64,000 nucleotides of DNA from Spirochaetaceae bacterium (GCA_051531975.1 JAOPTT010000006.1:256656-320655), one strand, 5' to 3'. Counted from the stretch's first letter, positions 2,742 to 33,569 are shown. The notes: a model not told the origin generated them from the letters alone. A program made the numbers and translations.

Positions 2742-2866
2742 GTTTATATTTGTTAACATTTATTTATCCATACACTTTTTTAGCATTGCCCTAATTGCCC
2801 TAATTAACCTAAGTTTAATTAGTTTTATTATTGATATAATGTTGAACATACAGTTATTATAAACAG

Positions 2867-4558
2867 ATGTTATTTGAATTTGAAAATTTTGATCTACTCA
2901 GAAATCTAATAAGTCAGGGAGGAATGATAGCTTTTTTTAGCTTCATTTTTTCAAGAGTCAAATTATTTAGGAAAATATTTACAAAACCTAAAACGACAAA
3001 AAAAGATAAAATAATTTTAATAATCTTTTTTTCAGGCATAGGTATTCTTGGAACTTATACTGGAATCCCGGTAAAAGGAGCACTTGCAAATACTCGAGTT
3101 GTTGGAGTTTTTGTAGGTGGATTATTAGGTGGTCCAGTTGTAGGTTTAGGGGCTGGAATAATAGCAGGTGTTCATAGGTTACTTATAGACATAGACGGAT
3201 TTACAGCTACTGCATGTATGATATCAACAATAACTGAGGGTTTAATTGCATCTTTGCTTTGGAAGTTATTTCAAAAAAGTAGTAACAAATGGCTTTTTGC
3301 ATCAATTTTTGGCTTGGTAGCAGAAATAGCTCAAATGTTAATAATTCTAATAGTAGCAAAACCATTTTCTGACTCAGTTGAACTTGTTAAAATAATTGGT
3401 TTACCTATGATAATTGGAAATGCAGTAGCTATTGGAATGTTTATAGCAATAGCTGACTCTATTTTTAGAGAACGAGAAAAAATAGCAGCAATTTATTCCC
3501 AAAAAATATTAAAAATAGCACACGAAAGTTTGCCTTTTTTTAGACAGGGATTTAACTATAATACAGCTTCTAAAACAGCAAAAATAATATATAAAGAACT
3601 CAATCTAGCTGCAGTATCTTTTACGACAACAGATATATGTTTAACCCATATAGGTTCATGCAATGATCATCACTTACATGGAAGTCTTATTAAAACAGCA
3701 TCAACTCGTAAAGTTATTACAGATGGAAGGACATATATTGCCAATAGTAAAAGTGAAGTAGACTGTTCATGTGAAGATTGTTGTCTTAACTCAGCTGTAA
3801 TTGTCCCTCTTCAATCTGGTAATAAAATTATTGGTACTTTAAAACTATATCGTGATGTGGAATACGGAATTAGCCCTTCTGATGTAGAAACTGCTGTTGG
3901 ACTAGCTTCTCTTTTCTCATTACAAATTGAGAATAGTAGAATAGAGGAACAGGCAAGGTTATTACAAAACTCTGAATTAAAAGCGTTACAATCACAGATA
4001 AATCCACATTTTCTTTTTAATGCTATTAATACAGTTTCATCTTTTATTAGAACAAAACCTGAGAAAGCTAGAGATTTACTATTGGATCTAAGTGACTATT
4101 ATAGATTTAGACTACATGAACCCGACGAATTTATACCTATAGAAAGCGAATTAGATCATGTAAAAGCCTACCTCGATATAGAAAAAGCTCGTTTTGGAGA
4201 TAAATTAGAAGTAAACCTTTGTGGGAAGACAGATAAAATTATATTAGTACCTCCACTGATATTACAACCACTAGTTGAAAATGCAGTTAAACATGGAATA
4301 CAAAATAGCGTTACTGGGGGAGTTGTCACAATATCAGTAGAAGAAAAAAAAGATTTTGTAAAAATTAAAGTTGAAGATAATGGAATAGGAATAGAAGCAA
4401 AAAAACTAAAAACACTCTTAATTGAAAATAGAGGTTGTGTTGGATTAACAAATGTTCATAAAAGATTATTAAATGTTTATGGCGTCAATAATGGTTTAAA
4501 AATTGATAGCAAATTAGGAAAAGGAACAAAAGTATGTCTAATGATACCATTAGTGTAA
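2867..4558 (+). CDS. LytS/YehU(BtsS)-family sensor histidine kinase (5TM-LYT, GAF, His_kinase, HATPase)
   Basis: ANTRVVG...GGP 5TM-LYT motif; LQSQINPHFLFNAIN; LQPLVENAVKHG. Confidence 0.93.
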   Translation: MLFEFENFDLLRNLISQGGMIAFFSFIFSRVKLFRKIFTKPKTTKKDKIILIIFFSGIGILGTYTGIPVKGALANTRVVGVFVGGLLGGPVVGLGAGIIAGVHRLLIDIDGFTATACMISTITEGLIASLLWKLFQKSSNKWLFASIFGLVAEIAQMLIILIVAKPFSDSVELVKIIGLPMIIGNAVAIGMFIAIADSIFREREKIAAIYSQKILKIAHESLPFFRQGFNYNTASKTAKIIYKELNLAAVSFTTTDICLTHIGSCNDHHLHGSLIKTASTRKVITDGRTYIANSKSEVDCSCEDCCLNSAVIVPLQSGNKIIGTLKLYRDVEYGISPSDVETAVGLASLFSLQIENSRIEEQARLLQNSELKALQSQINPHFLFNAINTVSSFIRTKPEKARDLLLDLSDYYRFRLHEPDEFIPIESELDHVKAYLDIEKARFGDKLEVNLCGKTDKIILVPPLILQPLVENAVKHGIQNSVTGGVVTISVEEKKDFVKIKVEDNGIGIEAKKLKTLLIENRGCVGLTNVHKRLLNVYGVNNGLKIDSKLGKGTKVCLMIPLV

Positions 4559-26339: not shown

Positions 26340-26364
26340 ATGCCCCTGGATAAGGGGCTTTTTA
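26340..26364. terminator. Terminator between the ABC-F gene and thiP
   Basis: gcccct-ggata-aggggc followed by a T run. Confidence 0.7.
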
Positions 26365-27969
26365 TTTCTCGAAATTATCTATAAATCTAAATGAAATCAG
26401 ACATAAAAATAGTAAAATAGATCCTAGAGCACAAGCTCCATAAAAGTTATATGAACCTATTAACTGATAAATTGCTAATGGTATAGTTACAAATTCTTGG
26501 GGAGCCAACATTATTGATGCGTTCATCTCTCCTATAGAGAGGGCGAAAGAAAAAATAGCTGCAGTAGTTATGCCACTCTTTAATAATGGAAGTTCAATAT
26601 GAATAAAAGTTTTAATCCTACTATATCCAAGAGACATTGATGACTCTATCAAGGAGTAATTTATTGTTTTATATATGTTATTTATAGATCTTACACTTAA
26701 AGGCATAGCGATTATTGTATGAGCTAAAACAATTAGTATATACGACCTTGGTAAATTAAGGGTTAAATAACTTAGACCAATTATAATTGATGAGATTCCC
26801 ATTGGTAGAAAAAACAGCAGTGTATATAAGGATTTAAACTTAAATTTTAAATTTAAATTATAAGTAATCAATAAAGAAAATGGCACAGTTAATAATACTG
26901 TTGAAAATCCTAAAATTAATGAATTCTTTATGGCATATAGTGCAGTTCTATTAAATTTATTATTCAAACCACCAAATATTGATTTATACCAATGTAACGA
27001 TAGTTCGCTACCACTTGTAAAACCATCTTTTTTTAAGAATGAGCTAACTACTATTGTAATTAAAGGTGATAATAATATTACAAAAAGTGGTATTAGATAT
27101 AAAATAAACATAGTTAGACTTTTTTTGCTTAATTTTTTTTCCAGACTGTGACCACTAGAAAAATTTGAACTTCTTTTTTCACTTTTTAAATATATAAATA
27201 GAACTATAACTGTAATCAAACTTTCAACTATAGATAGAGAAGCTGCTTTCGGTAAATTTAGTGATATTCTTGCGAAACGATATACTTCGACTTCAATTGT
27301 AGAAAGACTTGGTCCACCACCTAAAACAAGAATAATACCAAAACTCATAAAACAATATAGAAATATTAAAGTAAAACTTGTAATAATACCTGGTGTTAAA
27401 AAAGGGAATGTTATCCTAAAAAAAGTCTTAATTTTTCCTGCACCTAAAGAGTTAGAAGCTTCTGTTAATTCATGGGGAATCTTTTTCCATCTAGATGATA
27501 TAATTCTGATAGCTAAGGGAAAATTATAAAATATGTGGGCTAATAATACCGCTTTTAAAGAGTATAATATTCTTAAAGGTGGCTTTTCTAAATTAAAGAT
27601 GTCTACTAAGAGGTTATTAATTACACCTTTATTACCAAATAGTAATACAAAACCTAAAACTGTTAAAATGGAAGGTAATACAAAGGGTAAACTAGCTAAA
27701 GCTAAAAATATTTTTTTTCCAAAGAAATTATATCTTGTAACTAAGTAAGCACCAGGTAGGGCAATTATAATTGATAAAAGGCTACTCAAAAAAGCTTGGT
27801 ATATCGTAAAACTTATAATTTTTCTGTAATAAAAACTGTTAAAAATTTCAGAAAAAAAAGATCTATTTAACCCCTTAGAAAGTACGTTAATAAGGGGTAG
27901 ATAAAAGAAAATTAATATTAAAATTAGAGGAAAAAGGATTAACCCCTTTTTCCCTATTTGAATATTCAC
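26362..27969 (-). CDS. thiP: Thiamine ABC transporter permease
   Basis: Duplicated permease domains with EAA-type loops (EASNSLGA, ESSMSLG); lies downstream of thiB and a TPP riboswitch. Confidence 0.85.
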   Translation of the reverse strand: MNIQIGKKGLILFPLILILIFFYLPLINVLSKGLNRSFFSEIFNSFYYRKIISFTIYQAFLSSLLSIIIALPGAYLVTRYNFFGKKIFLALASLPFVLPSILTVLGFVLLFGNKGVINNLLVDIFNLEKPPLRILYSLKAVLLAHIFYNFPLAIRIISSRWKKIPHELTEASNSLGAGKIKTFFRITFPFLTPGIITSFTLIFLYCFMSFGIILVLGGGPSLSTIEVEVYRFARISLNLPKAASLSIVESLITVIVLFIYLKSEKRSSNFSSGHSLEKKLSKKSLTMFILYLIPLFVILLSPLITIVVSSFLKKDGFTSGSELSLHWYKSIFGGLNNKFNRTALYAIKNSLILGFSTVLLTVPFSLLITYNLNLKFKFKSLYTLLFFLPMGISSIIIGLSYLTLNLPRSYILIVLAHTIIAMPLSVRSINNIYKTINYSLIESSMSLGYSRIKTFIHIELPLLKSGITTAAIFSFALSIGEMNASIMLAPQEFVTIPLAIYQLIGSYNFYGACALGSILLFLCLISFRFIDNFEK

Positions 27970-28988
27970 TATTTAACTGAATTCTCAGCCCATTCGTTAA
28001 GCCATATATCATAATTTTTTTCAATTAGATCATAATCTAGTTGTAATGTTTTTTTAGGATATAGAGCATAATCAAAAGATTCTGGTAATTCAACTTTACT
28101 GTTTACAGGGAACATCCAATTTGTCATTGGCAGAATATTTTGCGCTTCTTCAGATAACATGAAATCTAAAAACTTCTGTGCATTTAATATATTTTTAGAT
28201 CCCTTAATAATACCAAGACCTTCAAGTTGCATGTAGTTACCTTCCTCAAATATAAGTGCTTGATATCTAGTTGTCTCTTCGTACGCGACATGATATGCAG
28301 GGCTTGTTGTATAACTAAGAACCATTGGGGCTTCACCTTGAGTAAATAGGCCATATCCAGAAGACCATCCATCAGTAATTGTTAAAATTGAAGGTTTAAG
28401 TCTATTCCAATATTCTAAATAGTCATCTCCATAAACTGCTTTTGTCCATAAAAGAAATCCTAAACCAGGACTAGAAGTTCTTGGATCCATAAGAATTAAA
28501 GATTTAGCATATTCAGGTTTAGTTAAATCTTCTAATGACATAGGTGGATTATCTAAAGCTTCAGTATCATAGATAATTGAGAAATAACCATAATCGAAGG
28601 GTACTAAGCTATTTTTTTTATCGAATTGTAAATCTTTATCTAGTGCTTTAACACTATCACTTGAATATGGGGTTAAAATATCAGCTTTTAATGCTTTTGA
28701 AAGCATATTGTTATCAACACCAATAATAATATCTGCTATTGGACTATCTTTTTCACTGATAGCTTTAGTTAATACTGAACCGGCATCTCCAAAATCAACC
28801 ATGTTAACTTTAATACCATATTTTTCTTCAAACAGAGGAATAATCTGTGGTCCTGGACCCCAGTCGGATGTGAATGAATCGTATGCATAAATTGTTAATT
28901 CATCTGTTTCTACTGCAACTTCTTTGTTAGATGATGCAAATAGAACTGTACTACATAAAACGAGTAGTATTAAAAGTAATTTTTTCAT
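27969..28988 (-). CDS. thiB: Thiamine ABC transporter substrate-binding protein
   Basis: YAYDSFTSDWGPGP, DPRTSSPGLG, VLSYTTSPAYH and NWMFP motifs. Confidence 0.93.
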   Translation of the reverse strand: MKKLLLILLVLCSTVLFASSNKEVAVETDELTIYAYDSFTSDWGPGPQIIPLFEEKYGIKVNMVDFGDAGSVLTKAISEKDSPIADIIIGVDNNMLSKALKADILTPYSSDSVKALDKDLQFDKKNSLVPFDYGYFSIIYDTEALDNPPMSLEDLTKPEYAKSLILMDPRTSSPGLGFLLWTKAVYGDDYLEYWNRLKPSILTITDGWSSGYGLFTQGEAPMVLSYTTSPAYHVAYEETTRYQALIFEEGNYMQLEGLGIIKGSKNILNAQKFLDFMLSEEAQNILPMTNWMFPVNSKVELPESFDYALYPKKTLQLDYDLIEKNYDIWLNEWAENSVK

Positions 28989-29017
28989 TAAAATCTCCCA
29001 ATTTTTGGGGGGCTAGA

Positions 29018-29106
29018 AGTGTACTCCCTACGCTGGAATTACCCAGATCAGGTTAACGGGTCTAGTCTCAGATCACTTATTTAGTGAACACCCCGGATTG
29101 AGCTAA
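29018..29106 (-). ncRNA. TPP (thi-box) riboswitch
   Basis: Minus strand reads GGGGTG...CTGAGA...ACCCG-TTAACCTGATCTGGGTAATTCCAGCGTAGGGA, directly upstream of thiB. Confidence 0.95.
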
Positions 29107-29143
29107 CAATACATTTTATTTGTAATTATGTAAATTACTATAG

Positions 29144-31357
29144 TTAAATTCTTAATCCAAAGAAAAAAGAGTGTTCATACTCATCAAATTTAAATTCATC
29201 AGTTTTAAAATTAACATCTTCATCAATTATAATAGGGAAATCAAAATTTATACCGACAAATATTGCAACATCACCCCAAAGAGGAAGTGCAATTTTACCA
29301 CTAATATTTGGATAACTACCTGTATAAGTAAATAGGTCAGAACTATCATATAAAAGTTTATTGTTTAGAGATGCATCCATCTCGATATAAAGGTTCCCAA
29401 TAGGTATATGAAGACCTAATCCAGTTCCGACAGATAATCTATCAATATTATCTAAATCATTAGGTAATCCAACATAAATCAGATGATATAACATACTAGA
29501 TCCAAACTGATAATCGATTATATGATCCTCACTTGATGTATTATATTTATAGTTAAAATTTTGGATGCCATCTGTAGATATATTAATAAGACCAATTGAA
29601 AGTCCTTTTATATCTTTATTAATATTAACAAGACCAATTTGAGTACCATATACATAATCAGCAATATTAACTAAAGATACTTGGGCACCGTAAACATTAA
29701 ATGCTGAATTAAAGATATACGAAATTTGTATTCCTTTTAGGGTCTCACTTATATTAACACCTGAAATTTGTGCTCCATTAACATCATTTGAACTGTTAAA
29801 TAATCCAGCTATTTGAAATCCTGAAATATTTTTTGATGTATTATATAAACCTGAAGTTTGCATTGTAATAGAGTGGGAATTTCCACCTATATTATTAAAT
29901 AATCCACTAATTTGAATTGTTGGAGCTTCAGTATCAGAACCTATCCAATTAAATAAACCACTTATTTGTAAACCAAATGAATCAGAACCATGACTGACCC
30001 AATTATATAAACCTGTAACTTGAATACCATAATTTTCAATGTTGCCACCAACAGTATTAGCTAAACCTGAAACTTGAACACCAGTAAAGTCTCCTCCATC
30101 TAAATTAAATAGAGCTGATATTTGTGCACCTCTTGCATCATTAATTACCATATTTGCAAGGGATATTTGTGTTCCTTCTAACGATCCAGCCTTAGAGAAT
30201 AAATTTAAATCTAAACTTGCCTCTCTGACTTCATCAAAAGTAGACCAACCAAATATTGCAGTTATTTCAGGTACATCTAAATCATATTCGATTTCATTAG
30301 TGTTTCCACCTCGGACAACATTTTTTTCTGGAGTAAACTCTTCATATTTATACAAGGAAACTACTTTTGAATCATTTGGATTTAAAAGCAACTTTTGTTT
30401 TGAATAAATACCATCTACTTCTTTTATTATTGTATATAATGATGAAGGAACAGATATTTGTAATGTTACACCATGCTTTTTATTAACTTCACTAATTAAA
30501 TTATCTTCATTATCTCGGATAAAAAAACGTCCATAATCATCTTCTTGAAATTCTATTTTTGATTCTGCATTTCTTAGGTCCGTTAATACGATATCACCAG
30601 AGCCTGTTAACCTAAAATCATATGAAGCATGTTGAGCCCCTGCTTGAGTAGCTTCTGTTCTTGCCAACGTTTCATTTGATGCATAACTAAAAGCTTCATG
30701 AAGTGTAACCTTTCCATCAGAAGATGTATCTGCTGCACCTCTTAATGCTGAAACTAAAAAATGAGTAAAAAATGAAGCTTGTAATCTGTTGGATTCCTGA
30801 GCAGCCTCATTTTCAGATGAGGATGTAATAAAAGCATGTCCTGTAGTTTTTACAGACTCATCAACTAGAAATGATGCATTATGTTTCCCACCTTTTAATA
30901 AGGTAAAAGCTCCAGATGAACAAGAATCTAATATTCCAATTTTAACATCTGCATTTGTACTCTCTAAGGATTCTTTTAACTCTTTATACGTTAGTAATGC
31001 GTCTCTTACTAATAATCCTTCTTCTGTAGAATGACCAGAATAATAGAATATTAATTCAGTTCTTGTATTAACCCCATCTGTTAAAATATTATTAGTCATT
31101 TTATCAAAGCTTCGTTTAATAGATGATTTTGTTGGGTTAAGAAGTAATATACTATCACTATTTTCTATACCACCAATATCAGCAAATACATTGGCGATCA
31201 TTTTTGCATCAGATTCTGCATATCTTAAAATAGCTCTTTCATCTCCACCATTATTTGCGCCTACTAAAATAGCATATCTCTTTACTAGTCTAGTTTCAGA
31301 TGAAAATAGTGTCGCACTTGATATTAACAATAATATCAATAATATTTTTTTTATCAT
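29144..31357 (-). CDS. Exported caspase-family (C14) protease fused to GxQ(I/V)xxxxN repeats and a probable C-terminal beta-barrel
   Basis: Signal peptide; YYSGH109 and ILDSC146 catalytic dyad; FFTHFLVSALRGAAD; about 13 GxQxSGLxN-type repeats; amphipathic strands ending HSFFFGLRI. Confidence 0.85.
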   Translation of the reverse strand: MIKKILLILLLISSATLFSSETRLVKRYAILVGANNGGDERAILRYAESDAKMIANVFADIGGIENSDSILLLNPTKSSIKRSFDKMTNNILTDGVNTRTELIFYYSGHSTEEGLLVRDALLTYKELKESLESTNADVKIGILDSCSSGAFTLLKGGKHNASFLVDESVKTTGHAFITSSSENEAAQESNRLQASFFTHFLVSALRGAADTSSDGKVTLHEAFSYASNETLARTEATQAGAQHASYDFRLTGSGDIVLTDLRNAESKIEFQEDDYGRFFIRDNEDNLISEVNKKHGVTLQISVPSSLYTIIKEVDGIYSKQKLLLNPNDSKVVSLYKYEEFTPEKNVVRGGNTNEIEYDLDVPEITAIFGWSTFDEVREASLDLNLFSKAGSLEGTQISLANMVINDARGAQISALFNLDGGDFTGVQVSGLANTVGGNIENYGIQVTGLYNWVSHGSDSFGLQISGLFNWIGSDTEAPTIQISGLFNNIGGNSHSITMQTSGLYNTSKNISGFQIAGLFNSSNDVNGAQISGVNISETLKGIQISYIFNSAFNVYGAQVSLVNIADYVYGTQIGLVNINKDIKGLSIGLINISTDGIQNFNYKYNTSSEDHIIDYQFGSSMLYHLIYVGLPNDLDNIDRLSVGTGLGLHIPIGNLYIEMDASLNNKLLYDSSDLFTYTGSYPNISGKIALPLWGDVAIFVGINFDFPIIIDEDVNFKTDEFKFDEYEHSFFFGLRI
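29575..30180 (-). repeat. Coding tandem repeat region (13-17 aa GxQ(I/V)SGL(F/Y)N units)
   Basis: GTQISLAN, GAQISALFN, GVQVSGLAN, GIQVTGLYN, GLQISGLFN, TIQISGLFN, TMQTSGLYN, GFQIAGLFN, GAQISGVN, GIQISYIFN, GAQVSLVN, GTQIGLVN, GLSIGLIN. Confidence 0.85.
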
Positions 31358-31361
31358 TTTT

Positions 31362-32096
31362 TTAATCCTTTAAAAGCGTAATATTCGCAATATTATATTC
31401 ATTAGGTAATTTTAAATCTTTAATTATTTTTCCATCAGATATTCTTATCTTAGAAATAGATTCTTTTATTAAGCTCATGTTTAAAGATGAATCAGTTGTT
31501 ATCATATAAAACTTTTCAAAATAAGGTGCATTATCTAACGTATATGAAGTAGGTAGGGTAATCTCTTTTCCAATATCTAAATATGTTGTTTCATATATAT
31601 CCTCAGGAAAATGGTATGTAATGTTATTTAATCCATCAATAGAAAATATAACTCCATACTTATCTTTAGAAAGATAGGTAATCTGCAGTAAACTATTTTC
31701 ATTTACTTTATCAAGGTTTTTAAGTTTACTAATTAGATCACTATCTTTTTTGTATATATTTAAAGTATTAACTCCCTTTAAATATATTATTTCTGGATCC
31801 CCATTTATTTCATGTGGAAGAATATTGAATACTATAATTAAACATGCAGCAGCAGCTAAAGTTGTTATGGTTTTTAAAGGAAAATTTATAATCTTTTTCT
31901 TTTTGGTTTCTACTTGGGTCTGGGCGGCTAATTTTTTAATATCAAATTTTTCGAAAAAGTCTTTATTATCCTGCTCAATATAGTCTAAGTATTCAGTATC
32001 CTCTGCACCCAAAATTATATTCGCATTCTGTACTTGAGATAATTCATCTAATTTATATTGTTCTAATTTTATATTATATCTTCTATCTTCTTTCAT
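31362..32096 (-). CDS. Putative single-pass membrane anti-sigma factor with a DUF4384-like extracytoplasmic domain
   Basis: Short helical N-terminus (LEQYKLDEL), TM at aa ~77-93, C-terminal LQITY...GVIFSIDG...HFP...SYTLDNAP domain; ATG abuts the sigma stop. Confidence 0.7.
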   Translation of the reverse strand: MKEDRRYNIKLEQYKLDELSQVQNANIILGAEDTEYLDYIEQDNKDFFEKFDIKKLAAQTQVETKKKKIINFPLKTITTLAAAACLIIVFNILPHEINGDPEIIYLKGVNTLNIYKKDSDLISKLKNLDKVNENSLLQITYLSKDKYGVIFSIDGLNNITYHFPEDIYETTYLDIGKEITLPTSYTLDNAPYFEKFYMITTDSSLNMSLIKESISKIRISDGKIIKDLKLPNEYNIANITLLKD

Positions 32097-32570
32097 TTAT
32101 TTCTCCTCAAGTAATAATGATTTTTTCCGTAGATTCCTTAGTCTTTTTCTAACACCAGAAACAGATAAACCAACTTGTTTTGCAGTTTCCTCTAAAGTAA
32201 AACCATCAACATAATGTAAGACTGCAATAGTTTTTGTTGTTGGTTTTTCTTTCTTAAACAGTTCATCTAAAAACATGTGAGTAATAATTTGTTTTTCAGT
32301 ATTATCACTGCTTGCTATGATAGACAAAATTTCATCAGACTCACATTCAGGTGTTTTTTTGCTTTTTCTAATTATATTTAGACAGATATTTGTAGCAATT
32401 GTATAAAGTAAACTTGATGGTGCATCCATCGTTAATACATCTTTTTTATTAATAAGTTGCACAAATACATCCTGCATTGCTTCTGAAGCTGAATCTTCAT
32501 TTTTAAGCATTGTTCTACACCGCCTGTAAACCATTGGTCCATATTTTTTGTATAAAAGTTCAATATCCAT
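32097..32570 (-). CDS. ECF (sigma-70 group 4) RNA polymerase sigma factor
   Basis: LYKKYGPMVYRRC...AMQDVF...LYTIATNICLN (sigma2); HYVDGFTLEETAKQVGLSVSGVRKRL (sigma4). Confidence 0.93.
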   Translation of the reverse strand: MDIELLYKKYGPMVYRRCRTMLKNEDSASEAMQDVFVQLINKKDVLTMDAPSSLLYTIATNICLNIIRKSKKTPECESDEILSIIASSDNTEKQIITHMFLDELFKKEKPTTKTIAVLHYVDGFTLEETAKQVGLSVSGVRKRLRNLRKKSLLLEEK

Positions 32571-32704
32571 TCTTAATCCTATCTATTTAAAACATTTTTT
32601 TTATTAAGTGTTACCATAAAATATATAATTTTAGCTTTTTTTTCATTAGTAAAAGCATACATTTTTATCTATTTATTGTAATATTCGAATATTAGGAGAT
32701 ATAA

Positions 32705-33145
32705 ATGGCATTAGACATGAGTTTTAAAGGAAAAGAATTTCCTTCTTACAGTTTTAAAGTTGAACATTGTAAAATAAAAGAAATTTGCGGTGCAATTGGT
32801 GATCAAAACCCAATTTATTTTGATACTAATGAAGCTAAAGAACAGGGATATAAAGATAGCCCAGCACCATTAACATTTGCTTCGTTAATGAGTTTTTGGG
32901 GTTATCCTGAAATATGGGATAGAATGACTGAAATTGGTATCGATATTAAACGTTTACTTCATGCAAAAGAGGAATATGAATATCTAGAACTAATATATCC
33001 AGGTGATGATCTAGTTGGTACAGTTTCTGTAGACTCTTTAAGAGATGGAAAAATGCAGATGGCTTGTTTTAAAACAACATTTAAACGTAATGGTCAAGAT
33101 GTATTAATCGCGAAGATGACCATTATGGTTCCACCAAGTAATTAG
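32705..33145 (+). CDS. MaoC-like dehydratase N-terminal / FAS1-like hotdog protein
   Basis: AIGDQNPIYFD..EA...GY...PAPLTF and LLHAKEEYEY...IYPGD motifs. Confidence 0.85.
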   Translation: MALDMSFKGKEFPSYSFKVEHCKIKEICGAIGDQNPIYFDTNEAKEQGYKDSPAPLTFASLMSFWGYPEIWDRMTEIGIDIKRLLHAKEEYEYLELIYPGDDLVGTVSVDSLRDGKMQMACFKTTFKRNGQDVLIAKMTIMVPPSN

Positions 33146-33155
33146 GGAGATTTTC

Positions 33156-33569
33156 ATGAAATTAGATATTAGTAAATTAAACGTTGGGGATATAATCCCA
33201 GAATATACATTCGATGAAGTTACTCAGGTGCAGCTAATTAAATATGCTGGTGCTGCAGGTGATTTTAATCCTATACATACAATTCCTGCTTTTGCAAAGG
33301 AAGCGGGTTTAGATGGCACTATTGCTCATGGAATGCTTATTATGGGTATGTTAGGAAAGCTTATTTCAGATTGGTCTGGAATTAAACATGTAACAAAATA
33401 TGGTGTTAGTTTTAAGAGTAAAACTGTACCAGGTGATATATTAACAGCCAGAGGTGAGATTAAAAAAATTACACCAAACGATGGTTTTACATTAGTTGAT
33501 TGCAAAGTTAATATTATCGACTCAAAAGGTGATCTAAAAGTTGATGGAAAATTAACAATAAAATTATAG
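33156..33569 (+). CDS. MaoC-family (R)-specific hydratase/dehydratase
   Basis: Hydratase motif YAGAAGDFNPIH...IAHGML. Confidence 0.9.
   Translation: MKLDISKLNVGDIIPEYTFDEVTQVQLIKYAGAAGDFNPIHTIPAFAKEAGLDGTIAHGMLIMGMLGKLISDWSGIKHVTKYGVSFKSKTVPGDILTARGEIKKITPNDGFTLVDCKVNIIDSKGDLKVDGKLTIKL

Follow-up and report, generated by a model that had tools for sequence, protein, structure and literature searches.

The sigma, anti-sigma and caspase genes and their conservation

We analyzed a three-gene locus in a 64,000-nucleotide stretch of DNA from a marine Spirochaetaceae bacterium (GCA_051531975.1 JAOPTT010000006.1:256656-320655), hereafter the window, in whose positions all coordinates are given unless a contig or locus is named. 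The genes and all their features described below lie on the minus strand. They encode a sigma factor of the extracytoplasmic function (ECF) type (32097-32570, 157 aa), a single-pass membrane protein that is an anti-sigma candidate (31362-32096, 244 aa), and a putatively Sec-exported protein with a caspase-type protease domain (29144-31357, 737 aa), called here the caspase protein. The TAA stop codon of the sigma gene directly adjoins the ATG of the anti-sigma gene, and 4 nt separate the anti-sigma stop codon from the caspase ATG. The listing of open reading frames (ORFs) matches exactly the three packed genes reported in a first-pass annotation, which a model had made from the sequence alone. 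Judged from its conservation, the locus belongs to a large, conserved family of cassettes, putatively self-contained and devoted to envelope signalling.

Of 8,000 candidates scored against the caspase protein, 1,671 are relatives at E ≤ 0.001. They include Proteobacteria and Polyangia metagenome-assembled genomes (MAGs), and the best named relative, from Thiospirochaeta perfilievii, is 71% identical. Matches occur in 40 of 301 sampled Spirochaetota genomes (own genome included) and in 30 of 126 genera. A survey by ORF calling and BLASTP of the 29 Spirochaetota loci returned besides that of the window found the anti-sigma gene directly upstream of the caspase gene at all 29 and the sigma gene at 28; the locus lacking the sigma gene (L022) is cut by a contig end. 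A wider scan with one genome per species confirmed at least 586 relatives, of which 80 were kept. Sixty-six of the kept loci have at least 1500 bp of upstream sequence: 57 contain both partner genes, two the anti-sigma gene only, and seven neither. The 57 comprise 56 loci plus L056, where one ORF matches both profiles. The 14 kept loci with short upstream sequence yielded both genes in two cases, a cut anti-sigma gene only in five, and none in seven. Loci with both partners include Myxococcota and Proteobacteria MAGs. A reverse search starting from the anti-sigma found the sigma and caspase genes beside it at 11 of 11 loci, one of the caspase matches (L129) being a fragment, and an exhaustive profile search with the anti-sigma returned 2,170 representative clusters at a threshold of E ≤ 1e-30, a number that rises to 3,510 with E ≤ 1e-10. 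The supposition of the first-pass annotation that similar trios exist in other bacteria is borne out by both surveys (29/29 Spirochaetota loci and 57/66 loci in the wider scan): the trio is conserved. The database names of its proteins are generic, the Myxococcus orthologues being entered as 'caspase family protein'.

Some loci depart from the common arrangement. At the Myxococcus-type loci L103, L108, L115 and L117, the caspase gene follows a 952-aa outer-membrane protein (TonB_C, CarboxypepD_reg, Plug) and a 306-aa ORF of no known family; these upstream ORFs, at about 2-2860 and 2862-3782, form a different partner set for the same protease. Some records, met at L117 and in one protein cluster, go under the name Comamonas sp. 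(KCTC 72670, JC664) and yet encode a caspase protein that groups with Myxococcus proteins at 90% identity; mislabelling or contamination of the assemblies may be the cause. The 421-aa ORF at L056:2574-3839 that matches both the sigma and the anti-sigma profiles is a fusion, a frameshift or an over-extended ORF. The short caspase fragment at L129:2114-2488 stands beside an intact sigma/anti-sigma pair, and the caspase gene may be broken there.

Architecture of the three proteins

The product of the sigma gene is, by its domain content and small size, an ECF (group 4) sigma-70 factor with regions 2 and 4 only. It scores above the cut-offs of Pfam Sigma70_r2 (39.7 bits, cut-off 24) and r4_2 (30.4, cut-off 25.7), of Sigma70_ECF (26.4, cut-off 21.1), and of NCBIfam TIGR02937 (70.9, cut-off 42.9), in agreement with the identity first assigned to it. 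Sigma orthologues of 45-60% identity head the trio in other genomes.

The 244-aa protein was modeled with a mean predicted local distance difference test score (pLDDT) of 84.2. It is composed of a cytoplasmic N-terminal helical region (aa 1-74, 31875-32096), a transmembrane helix (aa ~75-97, 31806-31874), and an outer domain (aa 98-244, 31365-31805). The N-terminal region contains helices spanning residues 9-66 (pLDDT ~87-90) and a conserved motif, L-E-x-Y-x-L-x-E-L, in which E12 is invariant and L11, L16 and E18 are nearly so. The transmembrane segment has a hydropathy maximum of 2.05 and forms a helix at 75-92 in the model. A disordered linker (93-105, pLDDT below 50) leads to the outer domain, which is predicted to be an Ig-like beta-sandwich resembling DUF4384 (pLDDT ~95 over 111-243). 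Hydropathy and model together bear out the earlier description of a single-pass protein: its small N-terminus on the cytoplasmic side has about 74 aa, and its outer domain has 147.

The resemblance of the outer domain to DUF4384 (PF14326) is below the cut-off in the window protein (17.7 bits against 27, E 0.0038); the family is matched by 24 of 44 anti-sigma orthologues at E ≤ 0.01, with a best value of 1.5e-6. Among the profile searches that the first-pass annotation had proposed, those for Peptidase_C14 and for sigma regions 2 and 4 gave matches above cut-off, and the one for DUF4384 did not. Foldseek returned generic Ig-like matches only for the anti-sigma model, none at E ≤ 0.001. The outer domain has near-invariant polar residues (Q138, S152, D154, H162, P164, D188, P191, E194), each kept in 145-149 of 149 representatives, which suggests a conserved binding or catalytic site.

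We infer from architecture and gene position that the 244-aa protein is an anti-sigma that binds the sigma factor. Its helices at 9-66, membrane helix at 75-92 and gene adjoining the sigma stop codon fit the architecture of transmembrane anti-sigmas. Pfam and NCBIfam scans gave no match to an anti-sigma family, and a search of the PDB with the anti-sigma profile returned chance ribosomal matches only and no solved anti-sigma. A zinc-binding anti-sigma (ZAS, H-x3-C-x2-C) is ruled out, as residues 1-70 contain neither Cys nor His. Assignment to the DdvA type of anti-sigma was also rejected: the outer part of this 244-aa protein is Ig-like, a C14 protein encoded by another gene carries the protease, and a search for longer, fused relatives gave none.

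The caspase protein was modeled with AlphaFold2 from 50 homologues (mean pLDDT 79.4). It begins with a signal-like segment without a lipobox Cys (aa 1-20, 31298-31357), followed by a metacaspase-type Peptidase_C14 domain (aa 24-240, 30638-31288; Pfam 43.9 bits, cut-off 21.4) and a small beta domain (aa 266-345, 30323-30562; strands with pLDDT ~80-89). The caspase dyad consists of His109 in YYSGH (31031-31033) and Cys146 in DSC (30920-30922). H109, D144 and C146 are present in 110 of 110 caspase orthologues and D50 in 109, so that the intact dyad of the 737-aa exported protein, pointed out before, is confirmed by domain score and conservation alike. A loop within the domain (151-172) is disordered, with pLDDT below 50.

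The structure model was split into three parts when compared with 48,161 chains using VIA-align (VIA). Residues 22-252 are nearest to metacaspases: AtMC4 (Z 17.6), Geobacter GSU0716 (15.6), Yca1 (15.5) and TbMCA2 (13.7). Foldseek matches to the caspase protein cover the caspase domain alone (caspase-7, legumain, MALT1, yeast metacaspase), and phmmer of the domain against the PDB gave a chance asparaginase match only. By both profile and model, the domain is a Peptidase_C14 of clan CD, with a caspase fold and a His-Cys dyad. The small beta domain is conserved together with it: the N-terminal ~350 aa are best kept, at 40-48% identity, and the C-termini vary. As aligned by hhalign, the small beta domain and the anti-sigma outer domain are unrelated (probability 0.3%), and the whole caspase protein and the anti-sigma have no detectable relation.

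Thirteen Peptidase_C14 genes (e.g. C6:240433-242816, C1:161399-164322, C14:166753-171510) are present in the genome, and several form tandem pairs. The caspase genes at C9:152807 and C14:170812 encode DTCHSG followed by basic-Gly loops. None of the 12 other caspase genes has a comparable sigma/anti-sigma pair, and the trio is single-copy in the genome.

A flexible linker (350-377, pLDDT below 50) connects the protease region to an all-beta C-terminal module (377-737, pLDDT ~84-97). The module is predicted to consist of a beta-helix stalk of ~13 LA_2272-type repeats (aa ~377-593, 29579-30229; pLDDT 93-97) and an eight-stranded outer-membrane beta-barrel anchor (aa 594-737, 29147-29578; pLDDT ~84-96). 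The ~13 repeats, each 14-18 aa long, span residues 395-597. Three stretches belong to the LA_2272 surface-repeat family (NCBIfam LA_2272_repeat, 55.3 bits, cut-off 25). In the VIA comparison, residues 370-626 resemble a beta-helix, that of the Ca-dependent antifreeze protein 3p4g (Z 18.2), as well as adhesin passengers. The latter likeness recalls Type V autotransporters, with the passengers EtpA, HMW1, TibA and Ag43; the 50 matches listed include no 12-stranded autotransporter translocator for the barrel region.

The barrel region is instead close to eight-stranded barrels, namely a designed barrel (Z 15.7, rmsd 2.0, 111 residues aligned) and OprF-N (Z 15.7), and then OmpA, NspA, PagL and OmpW; the alignments to 6x9z, 4rlc, 3nb3, 1p4t, 2erv and 2f1t have Z-scores of 13-15.7. 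The ESM Atlas lead for this region is 'outer membrane beta-barrel domain' (score 0.97). The beta-rich linker, ~13 repeats and barrel-like tail noted in the first-pass annotation thus correspond to the beta domain 266-345, the repeats 395-597 and the tail 594-737. Outer-membrane barrels with an even number of strands have both termini in the periplasm; therefore, the stalk, the beta domain and the protease are expected to be periplasmic. The model indicates that the protease is most likely located in the periplasm and tethered to the outer membrane. We considered a TonB-dependent receptor of the FecA type and rejected it, since Pfam and NCBIfam scans gave no Plug, TonB_dep_Rec, STN or FecR match and the barrel region resembles eight-stranded barrels. 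The earlier proposal of an outer-membrane receptor that binds a ligand, by analogy with FecA-FecR-FecI, is replaced here by a predicted anchor of OmpA/OprF type bearing a beta-helix stalk.

Shared motif, docking and candidate promoter

The juxtamembrane linker of the anti-sigma carries an R-hydrophobic-K-G motif. In 97 sequences, own locus included, Arg is present in 86, Ile, Leu or Val in 71, Lys in 95 and Gly in 93; among 149 representatives differing by more than 50%, the counts are 132 for Arg, 148 for Lys and 146 for Gly. The motif Lys of these representatives is positioned a median of 20 residues (range 9-53) beyond the membrane helix. A loop of the caspase protein, nine residues past the catalytic Cys, follows the same pattern: 110 sequences have Thr in 102 cases, R153 in 100, Leu, Ile or Val in 74, K155 and G156 in all 110, and G157 in 109. 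The window copies are Y105-L-K107-G108 in the anti-sigma (31773-31784), a candidate cleavage site in the disordered linker directly before the outer domain, and T152-L-L-K155-G-G in the caspase protein (30887-30904), a candidate self-processing or self-inhibiting site. Both lie in low-confidence segments of the models and are probably exposed. The DSC...KGG loop is found in only this one of the 13 caspase paralogues of the genome. The motif common to the anti-sigma linker and the protease loop, recognized from the alignments, is new here.

In plant metacaspase AtMC4, Asp137 and Ser84 help to form the pocket for Lys225, which blocks the active site and is then self-cleaved, according to the part of the structural report used here (PMC7206013). 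The profile of the window family aligns S107-G-H109 and D144-S-C146 with S84-G-H86 and D137-S-C139 of AtMC4, with a marginal profile E-value of 0.009. The invariant S107 and D144 are pocket candidates; the p10 pocket residues could not be aligned to AtMC4. On this alignment, the protease appears to keep the metacaspase p20 residues that select Lys or Arg at P1, its candidate specificity. A Lys/Arg-specific protease with its own K-G-G loop, encoded beside a partner with the same motif next to the membrane, has what we infer to be the expected look of a site-1 protease and its substrate.

We docked the caspase module (residues 21-365) with the outer region of the anti-sigma (98-244), each with its alignment, alongside three controls. 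The pair reached an ipSAE of 0.41 (runs 0.41, 0.44, 0.34) versus 0.00 for the best control. Of 157 solved complexes, 116 attained the pass mark, as did two of 215 mismatched pairs; scores up to 0.60 comprised only 18 of the 157 solved complexes and both passing mismatches. At least 85% of contacts are common to the runs, and the pLDDT of the partner is at least 82. The docking, a check put forward in the first-pass annotation, lends weak support to an interaction of the two modules.

The 134-nt divergent intergenic region upstream of the sigma gene contains a candidate ECF-type promoter (32589-32615), with GGTAACA at -35, a spacer with an A8 run, and TGTTTT at -10, located 21 nt before the sigma ATG. 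The family consensus, GGTAACA-N15-GGTGTT, stands 50-60 nt before the sigma start codon in genomes from spirochetes to myxobacteria. The pattern GT[AG]AC-N18-TGT is matched by 51 of 79 regions upstream of sigma genes. A GTAAC...TGTT box pair is present in 33 of the 79 regions and a GTGAC variant in 20, and 20 shuffles give at most seven. A relative of the same genus (L120) has GTAACA...GGTTTT with a spacer 1 nt longer; the A8 homopolymer of the window promoter lies within the spacer (32595-32608) that is one base shorter than that of L120. Conservation of the promoter across the family points to autoregulation of the sigma gene.

The pattern GTAACA-N14-TGTTTT occurs at six sites in the genome, two of which lie 21-25 nt before start codons: those of the sigma gene and of a paralogue on contig C10. 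Both of these sites carry TGTTTTA-x-ATAGAT; the remaining ones look coding. The C10 gene (C10:11413-12576, minus strand) encodes 387 aa and is a caspase-less beta-helix/barrel paralogue with 27% identity over 380 residues. Its promoter-like site at C10:12624 is 25 nt before the ATG, making the gene, on sequence grounds, a candidate second regulon member. In a genome-wide scan with the promoter position weight matrix, 34 of the top 45 matches were inside ORFs and the C10 site was the sole convincing extra one. A promoter-like site on C13 was rejected, as it falls in coding sequence. Scanned against NCBIfam, the N-terminal 60 residues of the C10 protein gave one chance row only, at the level of a signal peptide. 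Loci L015, L022, L027 and L030 have a similar repeat ORF directly downstream of the caspase gene.

Downstream of the trio, a thiamine pyrophosphate (TPP) riboswitch (RF00059) is located at 29008-29105 on the minus strand. It covers the full length of the model (1-105 of 105) with E 3e-10, and its 54.2 bits are 0.1 bit under the Rfam gathering score of 54.3; it is seen with an E-value threshold only, and Rfam at the gathering threshold gave no match in 28000-33500. The riboswitch precedes ORFs for a solute-binding protein and a permease (27969-28988 and 26362-27969, minus strand), probably a thiamine uptake operon. Since the riboswitch starts a separate thiamine-transporter unit, the trio operon ends with the caspase gene.

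Proposed envelope switch and comparison with known systems

In the best-supported mechanism, which on the sequence and model evidence we consider evenly poised between right and wrong, the periplasmic caspase acts as the site-1 protease of the anti-sigma. The barrel would sit in the outer membrane, with the stalk holding the protease in the periplasm, and the 244-aa membrane protein would hold the sigma factor at the inner membrane as its anti-sigma. The protease would cut the anti-sigma after the invariant Lys of the juxtamembrane motif (K107/G108 here). The remaining stub would pass to the RseP-type site-2 protease of the genome, for which a Peptidase_M50 (PF02163) at C6:557464-558645 (180.2 bits) is a candidate, and the sigma factor would be released. 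Once free, it would drive its own GGTAACA...TGTTTT promoter in a positive feedback, and probably also the caspase-less beta-helix/barrel paralogue on C10. The L-L-K155-G-G loop may be a self-processing or self-blocking site, as is Lys225 in plant metacaspase 4. A possible trigger is damage to the envelope, or a change in membrane spacing, that brings the linker within range of the protease; nothing points to ligand gating of the FecA type. Tentatively, and with somewhat less than even confidence, we speculate that the cassette forms a trans-periplasmic switch: a protease on a rigid stalk of lineage-specific length would cut R-hydrophobic-K/G only when the envelope state allows the two to meet or the K-G-G loop is released, resulting in a self-amplifying ECF response.

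The first-pass annotation had already pictured a caspase that clips the anti-sigma as a site-1 protease upon ligand binding. The cleavage step remains plausible, given the shared motif, the P1 pocket residues, the site-2 protease in the genome and the weak docking pass; the receptor and its ligand-binding trigger found no support.

Several observations weigh against cleavage of the anti-sigma by the caspase. The motif Arg does not co-vary between the two proteins: 97 paired loci divide into R/R 77, R/non-R 9, non-R/R 10 and both non-R 1, the last being the window's own and ~1.1 being expected by chance. The invariant K-G could be structural, leading into the outer domain where its first strand begins. 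The docking pass falls in the weak band and comes without a contact list. The role of the anti-sigma is drawn from its architecture, with no anti-sigma family or solved anti-sigma matched, and a predicted model is the source of the barrel and the stalk and, through them, of the placement in the periplasm. No fused anti-sigma/caspase protein turned up among longer relatives, which is weak evidence, the best 150 of the 2,170 clusters all having 246-327 aa. The two genome surveys overlap and their locus counts hold duplicates (L012/L118 and L085/L089 have identical promoter strings). Finally, 7 of 66 caspase orthologues lack both partners and 2 of 66 lack the sigma gene; orthologues without partners indicate that the protease can work without the sigma/anti-sigma pair.

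It is also possible, though rather unlikely, that the caspase is an output of the system and not its activator. The sigma/anti-sigma pair would then sense some other envelope signal by way of another site-1 protease, and the operon would be induced to make more outer-membrane-tethered protease, along with the C10 paralogue, for periplasmic processing or degradation, comparable to the induction of DegP by sigma-E. Such a role fits the co-transcription of the caspase gene behind the sigma factor's own promoter and the second promoter-like site before the caspase-less C10 paralogue. It also fits the seven orthologues without the pair, the 12 other caspase genes without such partners, and the lack of co-variation of the motif Arg. 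However, it leaves unexplained why the anti-sigma linker shares the motif of the protease loop, with a near-invariant K-G, and why the anti-sigma is always seen beside a caspase (11/11). It is moreover compatible with site-1 cleavage by the caspase, since under positive feedback the protease would be both input and output.

A decidedly improbable alternative is that the outer domain of the anti-sigma serves as a pseudosubstrate or docking partner and so conveys what state the protease is in. It would be protected while bound to the resting protease and exposed to another protease once the caspase is activated or engaged; or the K-G loop would be an inhibitor of the active site. TonB-dependent transducers reportedly protect their own anti-sigma from proteolysis, to go by the title of one paper (PMC11637429), and the Lys of AtMC4 resides in the active site as a self-inhibitor. 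The many invariant surface-type residues of the outer domain would suit such a partner, as would the frequent fusion of DUF4384 to protease domains mentioned in the part of a preprint considered here (10.1101/2022.08.17.504292). Against it, the docking support is weak and comes without contacts, and the position of the motif in a flexible linker suits cleavage better than stable inhibition. That the adjacency reflects mere co-inheritance and the shared four-residue motif is a coincidence is hardly credible: short motifs do arise repeatedly by chance, and some of the genomes behind the synteny counts are related or duplicated, but gene order and tight coupling persist between Spirochaetota and Myxococcota at only 24-38% anti-sigma identity, and promoter conservation extends equally far.

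Relatives of caspases are plentiful in bacteria, with 13 genes in this genome, and have almost no defined substrates. The cassette offers a testable candidate, namely one Lys-Gly bond, near-invariant, of the anti-sigma encoded beside the protease. If the caspase does cut this bond, it would be the first defined physiological substrate of bacterial orthocaspases, and the enzyme would represent a fourth catalytic class of site-1 protease for anti-sigmas, a caspase-fold cysteine protease with an outer-membrane anchor. Such cleavage would also lend support to the DdvA proposal discussed below, which is still unproven, and give a function to a large family with thousands of members in several phyla that carries only generic database names.

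In the sigma-E/RseA/DegS/RseP system, a single-pass anti-sigma receives a periplasmic site-1 cut near the membrane and is then processed by a site-2 protease; the window locus is similar in its single-pass anti-sigma and in the Peptidase_M50 of its genome. DegS is an inner-membrane-anchored serine protease of the PDZ kind, which the C-termini of outer-membrane proteins activate, whereas the candidate site-1 protease here is a cysteine protease anchored in the outer membrane, and the anti-sigma is not RseA-like. The FecA/FecR/FecI system has the same three-part layout of outer-membrane protein, inner-membrane regulator and ECF sigma factor. FecA is a TonB-dependent barrel of 22 strands with Plug and an STN signalling domain; in contrast, the barrel in the window is eight-stranded, and no Plug, STN or FecR was matched.

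Links between caspase relatives and sigma factors have been noticed before. Asplund-Samuelsson et al. described in 2012 metacaspase operons that contain sigma-70 genes, in Myxococcus (four of five), Anaeromyxobacter, Haliangium, Sorangium, Ralstonia and Fibrobacter (PMC3501461). The section considered is silent on any anti-sigma, motif, topology, promoter or mechanism, and spirochetes are not listed there for this arrangement (PMC3501461). A review, in the excerpt considered, places CHAT proteins near ECF54 sigmas (PMC8999054). The main text of an ECF classification paper (PMC7826278) contains neither 'caspase' nor 'peptidase'; a part of its supplement mentions DUF4384 only for ECF25 anti-sigmas, and the remainder may describe the present group. 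Apart from the papers cited, literature searches returned none that joins metacaspases or orthocaspases to anti-sigmas or ECF sigmas, and no functional study of the trio. The first-pass remark that no mechanistic description exists holds for the trio itself and overlooks the sigma/metacaspase operons noted in 2012 and the caspase-fold site-1 step proposed for DdvA in 2024.

The nearest solved fold, AtMC4 (Z 17.6), resembles the window protease in Ser84 and Asp137, which correspond to S107 and D144, and in the self-cleaved Lys of an inhibitory linker past the catalytic Cys; it differs in being a plant type II enzyme that is cytosolic, depends on Ca and has a long linker, as far as described in the text used (PMC7206013). 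In the Type III-E Craspase (Csx29)/Csx30/RpoE system, an ECF-type sigma is bound by an anti-sigma-like protein, which a caspase-fold protease cuts, and one group of Csx30 C-terminal domains is DUF4384, according to the part of the preprint considered (10.1101/2022.08.17.504292). Unlike the candidate protease in the window, Craspase is a cytoplasmic, RNA-guided CHAT protease, and the window locus has no CRISPR context.

The closest likeness in mechanism is to DdvS/DdvA of Myxococcus xanthus, for which a caspase-like cleavage of the DdvA linker before RseP was proposed in 2024 (PMC11506125). That system likewise combines an ECF sigma factor with a single-pass anti-sigma and a proposed periplasmic caspase-fold His-Cys protease that cuts a flexible juxtamembrane linker (PMC11506125). 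In DdvA, however, as presented in the sections drawn on here, a TPR-CHAT region is fused to the anti-sigma itself, would act in trans within a dimer, and has an incomplete active site (PMC11506125). The window locus has a separate, putatively outer-membrane-anchored Peptidase_C14 protein and a DUF4384-like anti-sigma, and the DdvA cleavage is itself at the stage of a proposal.

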